Origin: a virus
DNA: 14,900 bases
Direction: 5' to 3' (one strand)
Virus genome (UHGV): UHGV-0189183
The stretch's first letter is position 1. Each line of letters begins with the position of its first letter. A model generated the notes under the pieces. That model saw only the letters and a list, made by a program, of their open reading frames with translations, was not told where the DNA came from and made no database searches. Shown in pieces: positions 461 to 12,974 of this stretch. Made by a program: the position numbers and the translations under genes.

Positions 461-912
461 AACGATAAAAACATCTCATTAAGGCCATAGAGATCGGCCT
501 ATTCCGTCAGTTTCAATAATGAATAGTTGGATGAAAAAACGACGGGGCAGGGGGCTGGCAAATCTGCGAAAAGGTTGAAAAATGCGCAAAAAAGTTATCA
601 CACCCCACGCATTATACAATGCTGCTCGCAAACCAGCGCCAACTCTGGGAAGTCAGGGGGATACACCCTAAAGTATTTTTTTCATTTTATGTATACCAGA
701 ATGGCTTTAAATCACTCACCATCCAGCGCTATAACCGGGTTTAACCGTGTATACCATCCCCCATGTGATATGACGTATTCTCATTCATAAAACCCTTTAT
801 TGTATCGAATTTGACACAATACCCGCCCGCAGTAATCAGACCGTCAAGCAAATATCGTTGTACTGTTCACGACACACCTGATCACTCAAGAATTGTTCAC
901 AGCGAGAAAAAT

Positions 913-1938
913 ATGGATAACCCGGACAAAACTCCCGTACCTGAGGTCACTGTAGCAACAGAACCGCAGCCCTCTGCAGAATGCTTCACCTTTGGCGATC
1001 CCATTCCGGTACTGGACCGGCGCGAGCTGCTTGATTATGTGGAGTGCGTACAGATTGATCGCTGGTATGAACCGCCGGTCAGTTTTGCCGGGCTGGCACG
1101 TACCTACCGCGCTGCCGTGCATCACAGTTCACCAATTGCTGTTAAGCGTGACATTCTCAGCAGCACCTTCATCCCACACCGCTTGCTCAGCCAGCAGTCT
1201 TTCGCCCGTTTCGTTCAGGATTATCTGGTGTTTGGTAATGCTTATCTGGAAAAGCGCACCAACTGGCTGGGTGGTGTCCTCTCACTGGAGCCAGCGCTGG
1301 CAAAGTATACCCGGCGCGGCGTTGACCTAGAATCCTACTGGTTTGTGAACTACGGCCTGACGATGCAGCCTTATGAGTTCACCAGAGGCAACATTTTTCA
1401 TCTGATGGAGCCGGATATTAACCAAGAGATTTACGGGCTGCCCGGTTATCTCTCCGCCATTCCGTCAACCCTGCTCAACGAGTCCGCAACGCTGTTCCGT
1501 CGGAAATATTACATCAACGGCAGCCATGTAGGCTTCATCATGTACATGACCGACGCTGCGCAGAATCAGGAGGATGTGAACAACATCCGCAAGGCAATGA
1601 AAAGTGCCAAAGGACCGGGCAATTTTCGCAATCTCTTTATGTACTCACCCAATGGCAAAAAAGATGGCATCCAGATCATCCCCCTATCCGAAGTTGCGGC
1701 GAAAGATGAGTTTCTGAACATCAAGAACGTGAGCCGTGATGACATGATGGCAGCGCACCGCGTGCCACCGCAGATGATGGGAATCATGCCGAGTAACGTT
1801 GGGGGGTTTGGAGATGTAGAAAAAGCCAGCCGTGTTTTTGTTCGCAACGAACTGATGCCGCTACAGAAGCGACTGCAGGAACTGAACGACTGGTGTGGCG
1901 AGAAAATAATTAGTTTTGAACCTTATACACTTGAGTAA
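913..1938 (+). CDS. Cargo protein resembling a P2-family (gpQ / PBSX-type) portal protein; an in-frame TTG at 811 is an alternative start
   Basis: Long ORF of normal GC content. Conserved-looking blocks (FGDPIPVLDRRELLDY, WYEPPVSF, LVFGNAYLEK, NESATLFRRKYY) match what I recall of P2-type portal proteins. Size about 341 aa from the ATG at 913. Family assignment is from memory and not verified. Confidence 0.45.
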   Translation: MDNPDKTPVPEVTVATEPQPSAECFTFGDPIPVLDRRELLDYVECVQIDRWYEPPVSFAGLARTYRAAVHHSSPIAVKRDILSSTFIPHRLLSQQSFARFVQDYLVFGNAYLEKRTNWLGGVLSLEPALAKYTRRGVDLESYWFVNYGLTMQPYEFTRGNIFHLMEPDINQEIYGLPGYLSAIPSTLLNESATLFRRKYYINGSHVGFIMYMTDAAQNQEDVNNIRKAMKSAKGPGNFRNLFMYSPNGKKDGIQIIPLSEVAAKDEFLNIKNVSRDDMMAAHRVPPQMMGIMPSNVGGFGDVEKASRVFVRNELMPLQKRLQELNDWCGEKIISFEPYTLE

Positions 1939-1967: not shown

Positions 1968-2933
1968 TTAATCGGGAAGGTTACGTAAATCGATATATGA
2001 GAAAAATGCGGCACCTTTCTCAGTTAACTCGTATCGAAGATATCGATTTTCCATTATTGGCGTTGTTTTGAGTAGGCCATGGACCATCATTAACGTGCAA
2101 ACATTTCTAACCAAAAAACCAGCTAAGTCAGTCGAATTTGATCTTAACCCAGAAAGAATAGTTCCTCTATACAGCAAAATGAGTCGCATTGCTGTTGTTT
2201 TAACTGGCTCTGGAGTTTCGGATAATTTTGTCGGGATCGTTAACTGTGTATTTTCAAATAGCTTATATATTTTACTGAACTCTTCCTCAGATGGTTTTTT
2301 TACTATAGCTTTACTTTCAGGGGAACGTGCAGCTCTGAGAAGTTCAACCTCAGATTTTAAAGCTTCATTTTCCTTCGTTAGTTTAGATATTTGTTCTATT
2401 AACACACTTGACTCTGATATTTCCTTTCCAGAAACCCACCCAAGGAGATTTCTCTCGACACCAATTTGAGGAAGTGTCTTATAAATTGATATTTGTATAT
2501 CTTTAATATCCCGAAAAAATTCCACCGGATACCCCTTGACCTTTTGTTTGAAAGCTTCATATTTTGTCGGGTTATCTAATTCAAGAACTTCCTTACCAAC
2601 TGTTTTAACTTTTTCATCTAGATATTCGTCATCAATGACTATCGAAAATAGAGGTTTGTTTGTACTTAAAGCATAATCATATTCGAGCTCTGTATAGCAA
2701 TAATCACTGCCGGGAGCAATCGTTCCATAACGCCCTCCCAGAATAAGGATGTAGATATCTGACTCATCTATCCAGCGCTTAATAATTTCTAACTGGCTTC
2801 TGTCTCCAGGCTTAAATAGCTCCATTCCCGCAGGTATATGCCCGGCAGTTAATATGGCACTTACCGCAGCTTGCCTTTCTTCAATGAGGTCTGTAAAAGT
2901 TGATGAAATGAAAACTTGAAATTTCCTATTCAT
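1968..2933 (-). CDS. DUF4062-type N-terminal domain protein with coiled-coil and uncharacterised C-terminal domain (hotspot cargo)
   Basis: 321-aa ORF. N-terminus MNRKFQVFISSTFTDLIEERQAAV carries the FISSTFxDLxxER signature I associate with Pfam DUF4062. Gene is markedly AT-rich relative to the element backbone. Confidence 0.65.
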   Translation of the reverse strand: MNRKFQVFISSTFTDLIEERQAAVSAILTAGHIPAGMELFKPGDRSQLEIIKRWIDESDIYILILGGRYGTIAPGSDYCYTELEYDYALSTNKPLFSIVIDDEYLDEKVKTVGKEVLELDNPTKYEAFKQKVKGYPVEFFRDIKDIQISIYKTLPQIGVERNLLGWVSGKEISESSVLIEQISKLTKENEALKSEVELLRAARSPESKAIVKKPSEEEFSKIYKLFENTQLTIPTKLSETPEPVKTTAMRLILLYRGTILSGLRSNSTDLAGFLVRNVCTLMMVHGLLKTTPIMENRYLRYELTEKGAAFFSYIDLRNLPD

Positions 2934-3331
2934 TTTTTATCCATATAGAGTTATTGTCATCTAACATACCTACAAAATGCTATAGGTAAATTTAAGTTGG
3001 TATTATTAGTCTTTTACTAGTATCTAATGCTGAAAAAGTTGATGAAAGAAAGACATTAGACGCAGATACCAACATCAGAGCATAATCATATGATATAGGT
3101 TAAAGCGTGTTCAAGACCGATTAACGTAAGTTCCCTAGATCTCCCCTCAGCGCGAGCAGCCCCGCCCGCCTGCCCGCTTCGCTTAACAGAATGGTTTTCA
3201 TGCACCCCGTAAATCGCCTCAGGAGCCGCCACACAAGGGCTTTCACGTCAAAAATGATGCATGAGACTCATGCGTTTTCATGCGCCATAGACATGCACTC
3301 ATGCGCTCTCAGGCCAGCCAGGAAAAAGGCG

Positions 3332-3379: not shown

Positions 3380-3652
3380 TCAGACAGGGATTTGCTGGCG
3401 GCTTGATAACTTTGATGCAGAGCCATAGCGATTGAGCGTTTGCTGTTGTTTTTCCGGCATTTGTGCTTTGTCTGATTCCTGTTCATTGCGCCGGGGCTTC
3501 ATAATTATCTTATCCACACTTTCCAGAGCGGTAAATGTGCAGGAACATTCAAGATTCTGGCACTGATACCATGAGCGTTTAACCGACGGTGCTTCATAGG
3601 CGGTGGTTCTGGCGTGTGCAACGGTGCCGCATTCAGGACATTTCAGCGCCAT
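3380..3652 (-). CDS. Ogr/Delta-family zinc-finger late-gene transcriptional activator
   Basis: 90 aa. C-x2-C-x22-C-x4-C arrangement (CPECGTVAHART...YQCQNLEC) closely matches the P2 Ogr / P4 Delta pattern. Confidence 0.85.
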   Translation of the reverse strand: MALKCPECGTVAHARTTAYEAPSVKRSWYQCQNLECSCTFTALESVDKIIMKPRRNEQESDKAQMPEKQQQTLNRYGSASKLSSRQQIPV

Positions 3653-4413
3653 CAGATACCCTCCATATCACGGTTACGTTTCTGCAGCTCTTCACGTTCC
3701 TGACGGATCTTCATTTTGTGAAGGGCCGCCGGTGACGGGATTTTGCTTAAATCGACACGAGCCGCATAATCCGGCGCAACGCCCGCCAGTTTAAACACAG
3801 GGTCCAGTTCCGGCATCGCAGTGTTAGCAAGAGCCGGTTTGGTGATATGTTTGTGAATAAAGTCTTTCAGCAGTGTGTCCGGGTCATTAACTGAATTCAC
3901 CACCCCCACAACGGCACTGGCTTCCCGCCCCATTGTGGTTTTGAGCAGGCTCAGTGTCTGGATTAACGCCTTACCATGCGCCTGCATGAAGTCTTCCCAG
4001 ATTTGCTTTGCGCGAATTTCCACAAGGGTGTTATGTGCGCTGATATACTGCCCGGCTAATTTCCCGGCTTCCTGCGGTAATAAGGCATTTTCGCTTTCCT
4101 GAGCTGCCAGCAGTTCATCAAAATCCTCAAGCGTTTCTCGTCCCAGCGCAATTTCCGTGCGCAGTTTTTTCATTTCCTTTGAGACTACGCCCTGACTTTC
4201 ACGAAACAGCGTGCGCCACTCCTCATTCAGCGCGTTCGTCGTGGCTTCCATTTCAGCCCGGCGCTGGCGGATTGTCGCAATATTATCCGCTGCCGCTTTC
4301 TGCCGACGACGTGCTTCAAGCCATGCGCTTCTGGCCGTGTTCAGGGTTTCCATTGCCTGCTGCGTTACAGCCGGAAAAGTGGAAAGGTTGTTATTCTCTG
4401 CGGTGTTGTTCAT
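3652..4413 (-). CDS. Sid/Psu-family protein (P4 capsid-size determination / polarity suppression family)
   Basis: 253 aa, strong AGGAG ribosome-binding site before the ATG at 4413. Immediately upstream of the Ogr/Delta-like gene, as sid is in P4. Helical, charge-rich sequence resembling my recollection of P4 Psu/Sid. Which paralogue it is cannot be resolved. Confidence 0.6.
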   Translation of the reverse strand: MNNTAENNNLSTFPAVTQQAMETLNTARSAWLEARRRQKAAADNIATIRQRRAEMEATTNALNEEWRTLFRESQGVVSKEMKKLRTEIALGRETLEDFDELLAAQESENALLPQEAGKLAGQYISAHNTLVEIRAKQIWEDFMQAHGKALIQTLSLLKTTMGREASAVVGVVNSVNDPDTLLKDFIHKHITKPALANTAMPELDPVFKLAGVAPDYAARVDLSKIPSPAALHKMKIRQEREELQKRNRDMEGI

Positions 4414-4447
4414 GACTTCTCCTGCCGGGTTGGTTCGTTACGTCAAT

Positions 4448-4465
4448 TGTGTCGTGACTGACACA
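4448..4465. promoter_or_regulatory. Dyad TGTGTC-N6-GACACA (TGT-N12-ACA type) upstream of the Sid/Psu-like gene
   Basis: Perfect 6-bp inverted arms. The TGT-N12-ACA layout is that of Ogr/Delta activator sites in P2/P4 late promoters. Confidence 0.4.
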
Positions 4466-4588
4466 AGCGCACTATCGGCGCTCAGTGTGTGGTGGCTGGC
4501 ACAACGGGCGTTTGCGGTTATTCAGACGCGGCCATGACAGCCAGCCAGATAAAAATGCCTCTGTTTCAGCCTGCTTTATGTCCCGGAT

Positions 4589-4787
4589 GCGGTGAAACAG
4601 GTGGAACAGGTGTTACAGCATTGTTTTGTAAAACATTTATATGCACATCACAGGTGAAACATCGCAGGTAACAAGGTGGAACAGCGGATCGGCTGGCGTT
4701 CCACCTGTTCCACCTCACTATTTCAGAAGGTGAAACAGGTTTAGCCCTTGTAAAATACGGGTGTTCCACCTGTTTCACCTGTTACCC
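4589..4787. repeat. Iteron cluster (putative origin / alpha-protein binding sites, P4 ori/crr-like)
   Basis: At least seven copies of GGTG(A/G)AACAG in both orientations, e.g. 4591-4612, 4651-4660, 4675-4684, 4699-4716, 4729-4740, 4763-4782. Reverse complement TGTT(C/T)CACC resembles the P4 octamer TGTTCACC. Confidence 0.65.
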
Positions 4788-4813
4788 TTAATAAATAAGA
4801 CTCACGCAAAGCC

Positions 4814-7486
4814 TTAACCCGGCACCTCGCTGTTGAAGACATAGAGTCTGCGGGGATTCATCTCTGGCGGGCGAATGGTTGTCTGCAGCTTGCCATCGGT
4901 GGAGGGCAGCAGGTATCCACGATCCGCGCACAGACGCGCCACCTTGCGCGGGTCAAATCCCCGGCAGATTTCTTTCCAGCCGGACGGCATGACGTAGAAC
5001 GTGGTGACGGCCTCCGTGCCCTGCGCGGTACTGCCTTTCTCCACCCTGCGCCAGCCCACCATATTGCCGGGGCGGTTACGCTCGTCGTGCCAGTCAGCAA
5101 AGCGGCTGTACTGATTCGCGGTAAAGAAGCTGCGTACCTGCTCCAGTGCGGCAATATCTTCCTGATTGGCGGTGTGCCCGCGATCTTTCAGCCATGCGTT
5201 CAGGCAGACGCGGGTTGCCCGCAGCGCTTCACCCTCAGGCCAGCCGGTAATACCCAGCCGGGTTGCCAGCTCGCCCGCCATCGCCACCAGTGCAAAGCGG
5301 TTCACAGCCCGGCCTACCTGATTACCCGCATCTTTCGGGGTCAGGGCGGCTGTATATTCCTTCATCAGTGACTTTGCCTGTGCCGTCAGCCCGTTAAGGT
5401 CAGCGGTCAGGGCTTTCAGCCACTCCCTGAACGGCGAACCGTAGTAGCTGGACGTGGCCCACTCCAGATGTTCCGCCAGAGCCTTGCCGCTGTCGAAGCC
5501 GTGCAGCTCCTCAAATACGCCAAATTTCCCGGAATCGCTGGGGATCTGGATCATCCTGACTTCCATCCCGGCAAAGGTACGCTCACCGGCTTTTGCCGCA
5601 TGTTCGGTCAGTGACAGCTCGCCGGTTGAAAAGAACAGCAGCCGCCACTGCTTACGGGTGCGCAGCTCACCGTCCGTACCGGCACGGCCCTTGCCCTGAC
5701 CGTTTGCCAGCATGTAGGCGATATTACCCGCCTCGCGTCCGTCCACCTCCCGGATCTCATCAAGCATCATGGCGGCATCGTTGCGGCGGCTGGCGCATCC
5801 CTCCAGCGCGTTGCCGGTTGCCCGCCACGTCTGCCAGTAATCAGGCCCGCCACAAACGGAGGTTGCCGCTTTCATGGTGGTGGTCTTACCGTCAGTCGAT
5901 TCCCCCTTGAGGTGGTAGCCGCCGCCGTCCATCCCAACCAGCCGTAACAGGGGTGCAGCAAAGGCCAGACTGACGGCAAACGCCACGCGGGAGTTACCGG
6001 TGCAGTAACGGGAAACGTGCTCCCGCCATTCCTCCGTTGTACCTGACACACGGAAATCGCGCCCCTGCACGGAAGTGGTCTGGAGAATGACACCCTCTGC
6101 ACCTTCACCGCTGACCTCATCCTGCAGGACGTAAACCTGACCATGCCAGCCAGTGCGGCTGACGCAGGTCACGCGGCGTTCCGGTTTACACAGCGAGATA
6201 TATTCCATCAGGCGGGCGCGGGCCTCACCGGTGGTGCTGATATAGGACAGCCCGTTAACCAGCAGTACCCGGCGTAGTTCCTCACCGCTACCACTGAGCA
6301 TTTCCATCGGCATCGCCCAGCGGCGGCGCTCTCCCCATGTATCTTCCCACTCCAGCAGTCGCCCGAAATTACCGCCATCAGCATCGCAGGTGATTGCCGT
6401 CACGCGCAACGGGTTGCATATTTTGACGTTCTGGATCTCCGTCTCACCGTTGCGCTGTACCTGTTTTTCATACCAGAGATATTCCTGGGTAAGACGGAAC
6501 CCGTGCGGCAACTGCGTGCGGCCTTCTCCGCACAGTACAAGACCGTTACGAAAGGCTTCACGGGCACGTGTAATACCGTGCTCACGGTGGAAGTCATTCC
6601 AGTCAGCTTTAATTTCTCCCGGTGGCAGCGTCACCCAGCCACCGACTGATTTTGCCGCCCGTTCAGCAAAGGATCTGCCGGGATTCTCGCCCCCGTCCTG
6701 AAAATCGTTATCACCGGCGATGATAATTTTTACCTCAGGCCAGCGTGCCCGCAGCGCCTGTGCGACGTTGGGCAGGTTGCCCGCCGATATGGCCGCCACT
6801 ACGCATCCGGCGGTGAGCTGGCTTACCGTCAACGCCGTGGCGTAACCTTCGGTAATCACCACCTGTACCGGCGGTTCAGACGGTAACGGGCTGAGCGCCA
6901 CAAACGCGCCTTTCATCGTGCTGCCGGGCAGTATGCTTTTTTCACCCGTCGGGGCGATAAGCTGTGCACCGGTCACGGCTCCGGCGTTTGTCGTGAGCGG
7001 TAACAGCAGGGAACCGGCAGGGAAATCCTTACCACTGATATGCTGCACGCTCCCGGTCAGGGAGGCCGGGTATCCGGCGAACCCTTTTCCGGTCAGATAG
7101 GGGCTTTCTCCCGTGTGACTCTCTTTCATCAGGGCCGCCACGGTAAGGCTCATATCGCGTTTAGGGGCTTTTTGCCTGGCGGGCTTAACGGGCAGTTCCT
7201 GCACATCCGGCACATTAAGCACCTGCGCCACCTCCTGCGCTGCCTTTCTGATGCCGTAACCGGTTATGAGCTTAACCAGATCCAGACCATCACCATTGCC
7301 GCACTGGCTGCAAATCCACGTCCCGCGCCCGTCGAGGTCATCGAGGCGGAAGCGATCCTTGCCCCCACATTTCGGGCAGGGACCGTGCCTGCCGTTTTCA
7401 GGTACATCAATACGCAGCATCTGCAGAATGACGGGCCATTTTCCCCGCGCTGCGGCTGAAATCTGCGTAACCGTCTGTGTTGTCAT
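4814..7486 (-). CDS. P4 alpha-type primase/helicase replication protein
   Basis: 890-aa ORF. N-terminal zinc-binding motif CPKCGG...CSQCG. Large size and position in the replication operon next to the iterons match P4-family alpha proteins. Confidence 0.85.
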   Translation of the reverse strand: MTTQTVTQISAAARGKWPVILQMLRIDVPENGRHGPCPKCGGKDRFRLDDLDGRGTWICSQCGNGDGLDLVKLITGYGIRKAAQEVAQVLNVPDVQELPVKPARQKAPKRDMSLTVAALMKESHTGESPYLTGKGFAGYPASLTGSVQHISGKDFPAGSLLLPLTTNAGAVTGAQLIAPTGEKSILPGSTMKGAFVALSPLPSEPPVQVVITEGYATALTVSQLTAGCVVAAISAGNLPNVAQALRARWPEVKIIIAGDNDFQDGGENPGRSFAERAAKSVGGWVTLPPGEIKADWNDFHREHGITRAREAFRNGLVLCGEGRTQLPHGFRLTQEYLWYEKQVQRNGETEIQNVKICNPLRVTAITCDADGGNFGRLLEWEDTWGERRRWAMPMEMLSGSGEELRRVLLVNGLSYISTTGEARARLMEYISLCKPERRVTCVSRTGWHGQVYVLQDEVSGEGAEGVILQTTSVQGRDFRVSGTTEEWREHVSRYCTGNSRVAFAVSLAFAAPLLRLVGMDGGGYHLKGESTDGKTTTMKAATSVCGGPDYWQTWRATGNALEGCASRRNDAAMMLDEIREVDGREAGNIAYMLANGQGKGRAGTDGELRTRKQWRLLFFSTGELSLTEHAAKAGERTFAGMEVRMIQIPSDSGKFGVFEELHGFDSGKALAEHLEWATSSYYGSPFREWLKALTADLNGLTAQAKSLMKEYTAALTPKDAGNQVGRAVNRFALVAMAGELATRLGITGWPEGEALRATRVCLNAWLKDRGHTANQEDIAALEQVRSFFTANQYSRFADWHDERNRPGNMVGWRRVEKGSTAQGTEAVTTFYVMPSGWKEICRGFDPRKVARLCADRGYLLPSTDGKLQTTIRPPEMNPRRLYVFNSEVPG

Positions 7487-7866
7487 ATTTCCCCCTGATA
7501 CAGCGATACACCCGAGCTGCAGAAGTCATCAAATGCCGCCGGAAGTGTGCGGTACAGCTCCGCCATCACTTCACAGCCGCGCACAGTCAGTACCGGTGGC
7601 GCGGTCAGCAATGATGGCTCCAGCATGTCAGTCAGCAGCGCCAGTGCAGCCGCTGCTCCCTGTGCTTCGCCATATTCGTTAATCAGTGCGCACTCGATAT
7701 GCAGGGCAATGGCCATTTCAATACGTTCAACCGTCAGGCTGTGCGGACCATAGTGATCGCAGCCGGTTTCGGTCAGCGCTTTCTGGCGCCAGGCCGATGC
7801 AATAGCCCGCCGGTAAAGCGCAGTGGTCATTTCTGCCGGAAAAATAGAAACCTGCGGCTGGTTCAT
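7483..7866 (-). CDS. Hypothetical protein, replication-operon member
   Basis: 127-aa ORF. Stop overlaps the alpha start and its start overlaps the upstream gene stop (translational coupling). Confidence 0.5.
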   Translation of the reverse strand: MNQPQVSIFPAEMTTALYRRAIASAWRQKALTETGCDHYGPHSLTVERIEMAIALHIECALINEYGEAQGAAAALALLTDMLEPSLLTAPPVLTVRGCEVMAELYRTLPAAFDDFCSSGVSLYQGEI

Positions 7867-8147
7867 TGGGTGCCTCCTTCAATCAGTTCGCAACTGTGCG
7901 CAATATCCGTCAAATCTGCCCGCAGGTACTCCATCAGCGCGGCGATGCCTGGCGCACATCCTGCATCCAGCGTTCCGCCCTGCGAGGGGTATTCAGAAAA
8001 GAGAAGCTGCAACATGTCGCAGGCCTTTCTGGCGCGGTCCAGCTTTCCGAAACCGTCCTCTGACAACCCATACGCAAAAGCACCGCTATTGTGTTTTTCA
8101 GGCAAAGCGTGGCCCTGAGCACCGTTGTGCCCGTTTGAAATATTCAT
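7863..8147 (-). CDS. Hypothetical protein, replication-operon member
   Basis: 94-aa ORF, co-oriented and overlapping the next gene by 4 nt. Confidence 0.45.
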   Translation of the reverse strand: MNISNGHNGAQGHALPEKHNSGAFAYGLSEDGFGKLDRARKACDMLQLLFSEYPSQGGTLDAGCAPGIAALMEYLRADLTDIAHSCELIEGGTQ

Positions 8148-9069: not shown

Positions 9070-9279
9070 TTATTTATCAGCATCTGAGGATTGAGCTTTT
9101 ACCCACTGTCTAATTTCTTGTGCATCGTAAACAGTTACCCGTTTTGAAATACGTGTGGATTTTGGAAATTCAGGATTGTTTTTTTCCCAGCGCCAGAGAG
9201 TAACTGTGCTTACTTGCAAAAAGTCAGCAGTAGCCCGTGGGCGGGCATGCCCGGTGATAGGGTAAGTTTTTAATGTCAT
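9070..9279 (-). CDS. alpA: AlpA-family transcriptional regulator / excisionase-like protein
   Basis: 69 aa. The segment FLQVSTVTLWRWEKNNPEFPKSTRISKRVTVYDAQEIRQWV matches the AlpA (MerR-like helix-turn-helix) family pattern. Confidence 0.75.
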   Translation of the reverse strand: MTLKTYPITGHARPRATADFLQVSTVTLWRWEKNNPEFPKSTRISKRVTVYDAQEIRQWVKAQSSDADK

Positions 9280-9287
9280 GAAATTAC

Positions 9288-9315
9288 CTGCCGTGTTATG
9301 TAATGAACACGGCAG
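9288..9315. promoter_or_regulatory. Perfect 10-bp inverted repeat CTGCCGTGTT-N8-AACACGGCAG directly upstream of alpA
   Basis: The loop contains TGTAATG. On the minus strand the 3' arm includes the probable alpA ribosome-binding site (AGGT). No flanking T-run, so more likely an operator or translational-control hairpin than a terminator. Confidence 0.45.
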
Positions 9316-9386: not shown

Positions 9387-10439
9387 TTAAAATCTTCCTG
9401 CTTTAGATGAGCTAAGACATTCTTTTATCTTATCTTTTCCAAGTTCAACCTTTGTTTTTGGATTGTTTCTTTCTGCCACGATTTTATCTGCCCACGCGTC
9501 AATAGTCAGTTTTCCTCGTTTTCCATTGCAAGATGCTGGGTCATTTAGTAACCAATAAATAGCTGCTTTGTACACTGCCTCTCTTTTTGTTGCTGATGCT
9601 TCAACATTACCATGCACTCTTCGGATGCTTTCGATGCTGGATACACCACCATTCACATAGCTGGGTAGCTCTTTGCCAACACCGTTATCTAATTTTTCTA
9701 TTTGGTATCTTGTTAAATAGATATCATCCAGTGTTATATTTCCAATAATATTTTTATTAGATGGAGATACTAATCCCTCTATTGATGATAAGCCTTCGAA
9801 AGGGGACATTGCTAATATTACCCACTCATCACTGCCAAATGCAGCATTAGTGAATGGCATATTAGCTTCTTTAAAAGAAATATCATGTGCTAATAGCCTT
9901 GCTTTACCATATACCTTTAGTTCTTTGTATAATGAAGATGTTGGGCTGATGACACATATAGACCACAATCCAGAAAGTAAGATTAATGGGCTTTTTATAT
10001 TTGGTTTGTTTTCTAAATGGTATATTTGTTTTGGAGGTGAAAATGGCTTATCTTCTGTATAATCAATATCGAATTTTGCTTTTGGTATGAAATGGCTTAA
10101 TGCAGATTTATTACTATAGTTTAATACTCTGGGTGGGTACATGTTTTCCCAATCTTTAAAATCTCCACCTTTACGCATCATCATTAGCGCAGCTTCGAAA
10201 CCATTTAATTCTAAGCAAAATTCGATAATTCCAATTTGAGCAAAATGGATAAGGTCATCAATTTGGCAATTAAGTAGTTCAGCAGCTCGTTTTAGGGAGC
10301 AAAATTCCATTACAGGAATACTATTCCTTTCCCAAACATTTAATCGTGTATTATCGCTCATCACGTCACCTGTATGCACATATGGTAAAATGGGGCGAAT
10401 AGCAGACTTTACTACTATTAGCCATTTTCTTATTTTCAA
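9387..10439 (-). CDS. Hypothetical AT-rich cargo protein between integrase and alpA (alternative start at 10361 with AGGTGA ribosome-binding site)
   Basis: 350-aa ORF whose first codon overlaps the integrase stop. Conspicuously AT-rich. No family recognised by eye. Confidence 0.6.
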   Translation of the reverse strand: MKIRKWLIVVKSAIRPILPYVHTGDVMSDNTRLNVWERNSIPVMEFCSLKRAAELLNCQIDDLIHFAQIGIIEFCLELNGFEAALMMMRKGGDFKDWENMYPPRVLNYSNKSALSHFIPKAKFDIDYTEDKPFSPPKQIYHLENKPNIKSPLILLSGLWSICVISPTSSLYKELKVYGKARLLAHDISFKEANMPFTNAAFGSDEWVILAMSPFEGLSSIEGLVSPSNKNIIGNITLDDIYLTRYQIEKLDNGVGKELPSYVNGGVSSIESIRRVHGNVEASATKREAVYKAAIYWLLNDPASCNGKRGKLTIDAWADKIVAERNNPKTKVELGKDKIKECLSSSKAGRF

Positions 10440-11779: not shown

Positions 11780-11891
11780 AATCATGTAATGTCATGAAAT
11801 CAACTGAAACCATGTTCAAGGCGACAGGCCCTGATTTTGCTGGTTTTAAGGGGGGAGGTGAAGTGTGTTGAAACGTGATGAAATGAAAAGG

Positions 11892-11966
11892 TATTGTCCC
11901 CTGCAGGAATCGAACCTGCAATTAGCCCTTAGGAGGGGCTCGTTATATCCATTTAACTAAGAGGAC
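11892..11966 (-). tRNA. argW: tRNA-Arg, anticodon CCU (argW-type); the three nucleotides after the discriminator read ATA, not CCA
   Basis: The reverse complement, read from 11966 (5' end) to 11892 (3' end), gives GTCCTCTTAGTTAAATGGATATAACGAGCCCCTCCTAAGGGCTAATTGCAGGTTCGATTCCTGCAGGGGAC-A-ATA. It folds as a cloverleaf with a CCU anticodon and a TTCGATT T-loop. Confidence 0.85.
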
Positions 11967-11977
11967 AATGCGGCATG

Positions 11978-12041: not shown

Positions 12042-12974
12042 TTATGCCGGGTTTTTATAATTTTTCTTAATGTTTTCCGCACGTTCTGCTTTTTGGCGTG
12101 CTTCTGCTTTACGCTTATTGCTCATGTCGTTACGAATCTGTGCATGACTCATTAACGCGAAGATAAAGGTGCCGCCGCAGATGTTCCCCGCTAAAGTAGG
12201 TAGTGCGAAGGGCCAGATGAAATCGCTCCAGTGCAGCGTACCGTTAAACACCAGATAGAGGATTTCAACAGAACCGACCACGATATGGGTGGTGTCACCC
12301 AGGGCAATAAGCCAGGTCATCAATATAATCACCACAATCTTTGCCGCACCCGCTGCAGGAAACATCCAAACCATAGTGGCGATCAGCCAGCCGGAAATGA
12401 TCGCGTTGGCAAACATCTCGCTGGGGGTGTTCTTCATCACATCCATGCCGATTTTGACAAATGCATCGCGAGTTTCTTCATTGAAGATAGGCATATATTC
12501 AAATGCCCACGCCGCAATACCTGTCCCGAGAATATTACCCAGCAGCACGACGCCCCATAACCGTATAAGTAAGCCGACGTTGCTCATTGTCGGTTTTTGC
12601 ATGACGGGTAGTACCGCAGTCACGGTATTTTCGGTAAATAATTGCTGGCGGGCCATAATGACGATAATAAAACCAAAGGTATAACCGAGATTCTCCAGCA
12701 AGAAGCTGCCCGGCACACCTTCCAGTTCGACTTGAAATATCCCTTTTGCCAGTAACGAAGCGCCCATCGACAGACCCGCCGCAATGGCTGACCACAGTAG
12801 CGCCATTGCGTCGCGTTCCAGCTCTTTTTCACCATCCTGGCGGATATGCTCATGAATTGCCATCGCCCGGGAGGGGAGTCGGTCTTCATCTATTTCTATT
12901 TTTTTGCCGCGCTCTTTTTCTTCGCTCTCAACTTCAATTTCGTCGCTGTGTTGATCAATTTTGTCGTTGTCCAT
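12042..12974 (-). CDS. yfdC: Formate/nitrite transporter (FNT) family inner-membrane protein, YfdC-like
   Basis: 310 aa. Acidic N-terminal tail followed by multiple hydrophobic transmembrane segments. Sits between tRNA-Arg and mlaA as in E. coli. Confidence 0.75.
   Translation of the reverse strand: MDNDKIDQHSDEIEVESEEKERGKKIEIDEDRLPSRAMAIHEHIRQDGEKELERDAMALLWSAIAAGLSMGASLLAKGIFQVELEGVPGSFLLENLGYTFGFIIVIMARQQLFTENTVTAVLPVMQKPTMSNVGLLIRLWGVVLLGNILGTGIAAWAFEYMPIFNEETRDAFVKIGMDVMKNTPSEMFANAIISGWLIATMVWMFPAAGAAKIVVIILMTWLIALGDTTHIVVGSVEILYLVFNGTLHWSDFIWPFALPTLAGNICGGTFIFALMSHAQIRNDMSNKRKAEARQKAERAENIKKNYKNPA

Follow-up and report, generated by a model that had tools for sequence, protein, structure and literature searches.

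A conserved iteron array downstream of a primase-helicase gene is a probable replication origin of a P4-like satellite prophage

The satellite element and its genes

The stretch of viral DNA analysed here (UHGV virus genome UHGV-0189183; 14,900 nucleotides, hereafter the window) holds a complete integrated satellite prophage of 11.5 kb, similar in length to the P4 genome, at a tRNA-Arg(CCT) gene (11894-11967). The element is bounded by a pair of att repeats, of which the distal copy (CCCTGCAGGAATCGAA, 372-387) is a 16-bp duplicate of the 3' part of the tRNA and its partner lies inside tRNA-Arg(CCT) at 11899-11914. The minus-strand gene order is integrase, an unknown ORF, an AlpA-like helix-turn-helix protein, an Icd-like protein, several small ORFs, a DUF5375 protein and an 890-aa TOPRIM and DUF927 initiator protein (Pri-Rep; 4814-7486, minus strand), after which come the repeat cluster that is the subject of this work, a Sid/Psu-like protein, an Ogr/Delta-like zinc-finger protein and finally variable cargo. 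From the P4 core set we recognised int, the AlpA-like protein, DUF5375, the primase, one sid/psu-like gene and one ogr/delta-like gene; a separate psu and an epsilon were not recognised among the element's genes. The Sid/Psu-like capsid-size gene (3652-4413, minus strand) is assigned to Pfam Psu and to phrog_6165 (E 8e-94) and lies downstream of the proposed origin. A search of Rfam at the gathering threshold returned the tRNA only, and no C4/isrK-type CI RNA.

The repeat cluster fills the space between the Pri-Rep stop codon and a P4-Psid-like late promoter. The operator of this promoter (4448-4503, minus strand), which belongs to the neighbouring module, is made up of two TGT-N12-ACA dyads of the Ogr/Delta type (4448-4465 and 4486-4503, 38 bp apart) and sits upstream of the start codon of the sid-like gene at 4413. 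The same 500 bp are present in 326 of 5,426 complete E. coli genomes, and in some E. coli genomes two similar copies of the region were seen. Two ORFs that overlap the array, 4489-4671 (plus strand) and 4566-4778 (minus strand), were rejected as genes, as no RefSeq CDS is annotated for them in an identical strain and the relatives display indels and heavy spacer divergence.

Organisation of the repeat array

An earlier reading made from the letters of this DNA (the sequence-only reading) had placed a cluster of repeats in both orientations at 4589-4787, just 3' of a primase-helicase gene. Both points are confirmed, the coordinates being correct to within 2 bp and the gene lying at 4814-7486 on the minus strand. 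A search of the 14.9-kb window for the exact 8-mer GGTGRAAC gave nine copies, clustered without exception within 189 bp (4591-4779). In dinucleotide-preserving shuffles of the window (n = 200) the mean count was 0.89 and the maximum 5, nine or more copies being reached in 0 of 200. With the longer 10-mer GGTGRAACAG, six exact and two one-mismatch copies are found inside the cluster, a further one-mismatch copy immediately beyond its edge (4561-4570), and a stray copy at 12824, outside the satellite element. A motif scan of the complete att-bounded element found no second iteron group elsewhere in it.

Read as 9-mers, the repeats resolve into 12 units (nine exact cores and three degenerate ones), seven on the plus strand and five on the minus strand, with a 9-bp period wherever tandem iterons abut. 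The whole array (4589-4789, both strands), which we propose to be the origin, consists of five orientation groups and an AT-rich gap, and its first iteron starts 26 nt past the Pri-Rep stop codon. Nearest the gene, group A (4762-4788, minus strand) contains three abutting iterons that read on the minus strand as AGGGTAACA (4780-4788, degenerate), GGTGAAACA (4771-4779) and GGTGGAACA (4762-4770). Group B is a single GGTGAAACA iteron facing the opposite way (4729-4737, plus strand), and group C (4697-4714, minus strand) comprises the abutting copies GGTGGAACA (4706-4714) and GGTGGAACG (4697-4705). Group D (4653-4683, plus strand) is formed by GGTGAAACA (4653-4661), the degenerate CAGGTAACA (4665-4673) and GGTGGAACA (4675-4683). 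Farthest from the gene, group E (4591-4617, plus strand) has three abutting units, GGTGAAACA (4591-4599), GGTGGAACA (4600-4608) and the degenerate GGTGTTACA (4609-4617), and groups A and E pair as an 18-nt perfect inverted repeat.

The AT-rich gap (4619-4650, 32 bp; 27.5% GC in 4620-4659), a candidate DNA-unwinding element, separates groups D and E. No other 30-bp duplex in the intergenic region is less stable; within the whole element it ranks in the top 3% of windows for instability, without being the least stable of them all. On the gene side of the array, a conserved GTGAGTCTTATTTATT motif (4790-4805, minus strand) is found between the Pri-Rep stop codon and group A. The motif persists in most relatives, also in those with other iteron sequences, and is distinct from a DnaA box. 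For DnaA boxes no enrichment was seen (20 matches versus 13.3 expected), and the array itself holds only a one-mismatch site.

The Pri-Rep initiator

Pri-Rep is composed of a Zn-ribbon and Toprim primase (residues 32-304), a DUF927 AAA+ helicase (residues 330-612) and a C-terminal helical and winged-helix region. The predicted winged-helix domain, our proposed iteron reader, spans residues 780-890 (4817-5149, minus strand), with a recognition helix at about 846-856 and a wing at about 860-884; the AlphaFold model of the last 250 residues has a pLDDT of 81.6 and a pTM of 0.52. Alignment with P4 alpha is limited to residues 6-316, the Zn-ribbon/Toprim primase (37% identity). Beyond this point the two proteins part company, since Pfam assigns the Pri-Rep helicase to DUF927 whereas P4 alpha carries a D5_N/DUF5906 helicase and a Pox_D5 origin-binding C-terminus, and the C-terminal domain of Pri-Rep is a different one. 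In a PDB sequence search, residues 415-643 match SaPIbov1 Rep (8tch, E 5e-15) and the SCCmec helicase Cch (5dgk), and the C-terminal domain matches the same two structures in fold comparison; no P4 alpha chain was among the PDB sequence matches at E<=1 or among the listed top fold matches.

Because of these domain-by-domain matches, we regard Pri-Rep as a chimera in which a P4-alpha-like primase is joined to a helicase and C-terminal winged helix of the SaPI-Rep type. The description of the protein as "alpha-type" in the sequence-only reading thus holds for the N-terminal primase, and has to be given up for the DUF927 helicase and the C-terminal DNA-binding region, which are of the SaPIbov1 Rep/Cch type. 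A Rep-type AAA+ helicase followed by a C-terminal winged-helix domain is also the combination that characterises SaPI/PICI initiators.

Conservation of the array among relatives

To place the array in a wider context, one genome per species was scanned with an alignment of 18 homologues, yielding 55 loci with 57-100% protein identity, and relatives of the initiator proved to be spread across many Enterobacterales genera. In all 44 scored loci the five groups recur with unchanged offsets and orientations, within 260 nt past the stop codon (about +25/+34/+43, -75, +99/+108, -125/-135 and -190/-199/-208, with an optional + copy near 159). Slot by slot, A, C, D and E are filled in 44 of 44 relatives and B in 43 of 44. 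The expectation that the repeats would be conserved in relatives is thereby borne out. The top 6-mer of each locus occurs at 37 per kb in the array stretch versus 0.37 per kb in the rest, a roughly 100-fold contrast that is somewhat inflated because the k-mer for each relative was picked from the scored region itself. The AT-rich gap recurs at the same offset in 48 relatives, with a mean of 76% AT at 170-190 nt.

Four loci are exceptions. In L039, L047 and L056 an array of GTGGGAACA (10-13 copies, at about 7780-8100) is displaced to about 1.1 kb downstream of the Pri-Rep stop codon, behind an inserted integrase-like ORF, and in the fourth, L054, the gene is truncated.

Concerted change of iterons and initiator

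The iteron word differs by lineage. Apart from GGTGRAACA, we found GGTGTAACA, GGGGTAACA, CTGGTAACA or GTGGTAACA, GCGGTTACA, TGGATACA, GTGGGAACA and, in Rahnella, the GTAGTACA type, giving at least eight lineage-specific variants. This diversity fits the earlier suggestion that the 9-mer may confer a replication specificity distinct from that of P4. Within the window's own group (8 sequences), 3 of 63 core positions are variable versus 32 of 117 spacer positions (Fisher p = 1e-4), and in 6 of 9 copies the fifth iteron base is A in some sequences and G in others. When the window is compared with the group at 91% protein identity, to which L006 and its GGTGTAACA array belong, the differing positions number 2 of 63 in the cores (3%) versus 52 of 117 in the spacers (44%; p = 5e-10), and the fifth base has changed to T in all 9 of 9 copies. 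A conserved core together with a concerted change in every copy is what would be expected of sites read by one co-evolving protein, unlike repeats that are decaying or drifting.

Five independent iteron switches separate initiators that are 93-99% identical over residues 320-890 (window group/L006, L023/L026, L025/L028, L030/L018 and L018/L020). Across these pairs, substitutions in the C-terminal 110 residues recur at positions 846, 860-871 and 878, which in the AlphaFold model correspond to the first residue of the recognition helix and to the wing after it. Such changes include T867P and A846T for L025/L028 and K866R for L023/L026. For this 14-residue set, chosen post hoc from the same, non-independent pairs, the rate of change is 0.31 between initiators with different iterons versus 0.063 in same-iteron pairs of similar divergence; the corresponding rates for the rest of Pri-Rep are 0.027 and 0.017. 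A single-column covariation test for iteron class returned one weak column, K/R866, plus a doubtful column, 282. These patterns are suggestive of a role for the wing and the start of the recognition helix in determining iteron specificity, and since the 9-mer and the wing change together, each lineage may amount to a private replicon.

Comparison with P4

The sequence-only reading had likened the cluster to the P4 ori/crr repeats and taken it for a replication origin or a cis replication region. Lying 3' of the replicase and upstream of Psid/sid, the array combines the positions that crr and ori occupy in P4. On one side, P4 crr (4291-4590) adjoins alpha (4636-6969) at its 3' end just as the window array adjoins the primase-helicase gene. 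On the other side, the P4 Psid dyads (TGTGTCAGGGCTGGCACA and TGTCCGGTGTACGTCACA, 9494-9511 and 9531-9548, 37 bp apart) lie 81 bp from the last ori iteron, the equivalent dyad-to-iteron distance in the window being 86 bp. Both window dyads recur in close relatives, at offsets of about 310 and 348 nt. P4 likewise has a DUF5375 gene upstream of its primase gene, and the N-terminal primases are homologous. The late-gene arrangement differs, the late genes of the window being downstream of the replication gene and co-oriented with it.

At the level of the repeat unit, comparison with P4 ori and crr upholds the claim of one extra base: the P4 ori repeat GGTGAACAG is nearly the same word as GGTG(A/G)AACAG of the window, and for the same reason the window unit TGTT(Y)CACC is not the P4 type 1 iteron TGTTCACC. 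The P4 octamer was counted 0 times 3' of the gene in relatives with an adjacent array, with a single count in L039, whose array is displaced. No match was obtained by blastn of the region against 50,697 phage records, nor of the whole window against P4 at E 1e-3, and a pairwise MAFFT alignment with P4 ori-Psid was not meaningful beyond the dyads. As these searches gave no nucleotide similarity to P4, the resemblance of the iterons cannot be shown to be homology.

The analogy with the two-part P4 system does not extend to its architecture. P4 possesses ori and crr 4.5 kb apart, two 120-bp direct repeats in crr, and type 2 repeats, whereas the window has one cluster, no distant crr and neither kind of repeat, the longest direct repeat in the region being 21 nt. 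These features bear directly on the alternative that the cluster is a crr-like auxiliary element in cis, which would serve as a docking site for the initiator and, through looping or handcuffing, enhance or control replication from a true origin elsewhere in the element. The place of the array directly 3' of the primase-helicase gene is that of P4 crr, which also has iterons in both orientations with the 9-bp period of the window's tandem copies. However, neither a second iteron group nor a 120-bp duplication exists in the complete att-bounded element. The array moreover has a conserved AT-rich gap of its own, and the 8-10 kb loci of the relatives concentrate essentially all of their iterons in this one place. 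We consider this alternative improbable.

The proximity of the late promoter raises a different alternative, somewhat less probable again, in which the array has no direct part in replication and its repeats are operators, for the initiator or another regulator, through which the early operon is terminated or autoregulated or the late promoter is tuned. Transcription units do flank the array on both sides, with the late-promoter dyads 86 bp away, and as no intrinsic terminator is predicted after pri-rep (a scan of 4300-4900 for sigma-70 promoters and intrinsic terminators gave no sites), some other means of stopping or controlling transcription could be needed there. Yet the array does not include the Ogr/Delta-type dyads of the late promoter, and the one regulator-like protein of the element, the small AlpA-like helix-turn-helix protein, has its own repeats elsewhere. 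Twelve sites with an embedded AT-rich gap are an origin design, not an operator design. Furthermore, distant relatives without recognisable sid and delta genes downstream still keep the array beside pri-rep with its architecture unchanged, from which we conclude that it is part of the replication module and not of the late promoter. Very unlikely is a partition centromere, a packaging site or a cluster of integrase arm sites: parC/parS and att arm sites, too, typically have short repeats in both orientations, but protein annotation found no par genes in the element, the att sites (372-387 and 11899-11914) are 4-7 kb away, the P2/P4 cos 19-mer is absent at up to 3 mismatches (so that the packaging site was not located), and the array follows the lineage of the primase-helicase instead of that of the integrase.

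Resemblance to SaPI/PICI origins

A closer parallel to the whole arrangement is offered by the SaPIs and PICIs, among them SaPI1, SaPIbov1, SaPI5 and the Gram-negative EcCICFT073. In SaPIs, 6-12 iterons surround an AT-rich region just beyond the 3' end of rep and are read by the C-terminal winged helix of Rep, a protein that self-loads without a loader (PMC9371898). In Gram-negative hosts, a pri-rep-ori segment of EcCICFT073 supports plasmid maintenance (PMC6092414), and DUF927 primases are listed among the PICI primases (PMC10111431). SaPI/PICI origins lie directly 3' of rep or pri-rep, as in the window and 44 relatives, and like the window array they contain several short iterons in both orientations with an internal AT-rich region. 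Their initiators are self-loading helicases whose C-terminal winged helix determines origin specificity and which in some cases carry a fused primase (PMC9371898; PMC6092414). Gram-negative PICIs also share with the window the one-way transcription of int, alpA, pri-rep and ori.

The correspondence is not complete. The window element has late functions of the P4 type (the sid/psu-like and ogr/delta-like genes and the Psid-like promoter), and its iterons are 9-mers in five groups whereas those of SaPIs/PICIs are 5-6-mers. By the SaPI rule, opposed iterons stand on the two sides of the AT-rich region; in the window the gap is off-centre and groups D and E, which flank it, point the same way, with an opposed copy on the proximal side of the gap in 26 of 44 relatives. 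Of the four Pri-Rep alleles that Fillol-Salom et al. describe from E. coli PICIs, the one compared was EcCICFT073 (located in CFT073), which has the one experimentally tested Gram-negative PICI origin; its Pri-Rep is of the D5_N/DUF5906/Pox_D5 kind, unrelated to the DUF927 part of the window protein, and its iterons are CTGTCTACC. Origins of iteron plasmids (RepA/pi/TrfA type) are alike in placing initiator repeats beside an AT-rich unwinding element and in the paired specificity of iteron and initiator. They differ in using a WH1-WH2 Rep and DnaA boxes, the window element having no such protein and no DnaA-box enrichment. In the literature searched we found no description of the origin of this DUF927 Pri-Rep satellite family.

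Proposed origin and its mode of action

We propose, with a probability of about 80%, that the cluster is the single replication origin of the 11.5-kb P4-like satellite prophage and is bound by the adjacent primase-helicase. This proposal builds on the repeats and their position, on their conservation and concerted change, and on the fold relationship of the protein. The origin assignment made in the sequence-only reading is likewise favoured by the genomic comparisons, in that array and primase-helicase gene stay together in about 50 relatives, with the cores of the array kept, its spacers decaying and its sequence shifting with the initiator lineage. An origin at this place is in itself an expected feature, because satellites need one beside the replicase. 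As to its type, the best reading of the sequences is that of a SaPI/PICI design and not of a P4 ori+crr pair.

By analogy with SaPI Rep and P4 alpha, a plausible course of events, from binding and melting through self-loading to autonomous replication, can be outlined. The 9-bp iterons GGTGRAACA would serve as binding sites for the C-terminal winged-helix domain of Pri-Rep and, upon induction, would be coated by Pri-Rep oligomers. The AT-rich stretch at 4619-4650 would then melt, and the DUF927 helicase (SaPI Rep/Cch-type) would load itself with no separate loader. The fused Toprim primase would lay the first primers, after which host polymerase III would presumably take over. Since the initiator is itself both helicase and primase, no loading that depends on DnaA or on DnaB/DnaC is expected. 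Autoregulation or copy-number control by the same iterons is possible, and would be compatible with a function as the origin.

Knowledge of the origin and of its reader domain bears on which satellites can replicate independently in one cell, and the compact pri-rep-ori cassette may be of use for the engineering of vectors or phage particles. The relatives show unusually clearly how the specificity of an origin and that of its initiator change together, and the pairs of near-identical initiators with different iterons are ready material on how winged-helix initiators read their sites. A more far-reaching idea, which we advance tentatively and regard as somewhat doubtful, is that these elements form a natural series of orthogonal replicons, in which a few wing and recognition-helix substitutions in initiators of 96-99% identity are matched by one and the same base change throughout the set of about 12 iterons. 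The same idea would make the element a recombinant replicon, its P4-type primase and ori-Psid-sid layout having been joined to a helicase and DNA reader of the SaPI-Rep type, with P4 ori and crr collapsed into one site. If this were true, satellites could re-key their origins quickly, possibly escaping cross-talk or incompatibility with co-resident satellites.

Additional observations

Three genomes carry two members of this replicon family each (L005/L046, L012/L052 and L042/L013), with different iteron words within each genome, a sample too small for significance. On a 12.1-kb circular PICI-like E. coli record (NZ_CP148430.1), int, PerC and an Icd-like gene accompany a distant TOPRIM+DUF927 gene of 33% identity, which is followed at 6540-6652 by three copies of GTTGGTTCA, an AT-rich stretch and three inverted copies reading TGAACCAAC, in appearance a simpler origin of the same design. 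P4-like satellites are reported never to have been found on plasmids (PMC8628076). A Pri-Rep gene 97.9% identical to that of the window lies beside a DUF5375 gene on a 655-kb E. coli megaplasmid (AP026530.1 / NZ_CP128951.1, 463704-466373).

At the distal end of the element, inside the att-bounded satellite, we found a full-length portal gene of the P2-Q type (811-1938, plus strand; phrog_68, E 7e-169), which is preceded by two TGT-N12-ACA late-promoter-like dyads (801-818 and 859-876). P4 is not known to encode a portal, and the gene may be captured helper DNA, a decoy or a helper-prophage remnant. The slot after the ogr/delta-like gene is occupied by a DUF4062 protein (1968-2933, minus strand), and a PADLOC scan of five accessory proteins, this one included, gave no matches. 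In a 94%-identical E. coli relative (L058, 1309-4595) the same slot contains a Drt3a/Drt3b defence pair, which leads us to view it as a variable defence hotspot.

Two further repeat families were noted. A 20-nt direct repeat, TAATGTCATGAAAT(T/C)A(C/A)CTG, occurs at the start of the AlpA-like gene (9271-9290) and upstream of int (11787-11806), and may be a site for a shared regulator. A 25-nt family, CTG(T/A)AAAAGTTGATGAAA..., has two copies near the border of the hotspot (2891-2915 and 3030-3054) and a weaker copy beside the end of the tRNA (11866-11890).
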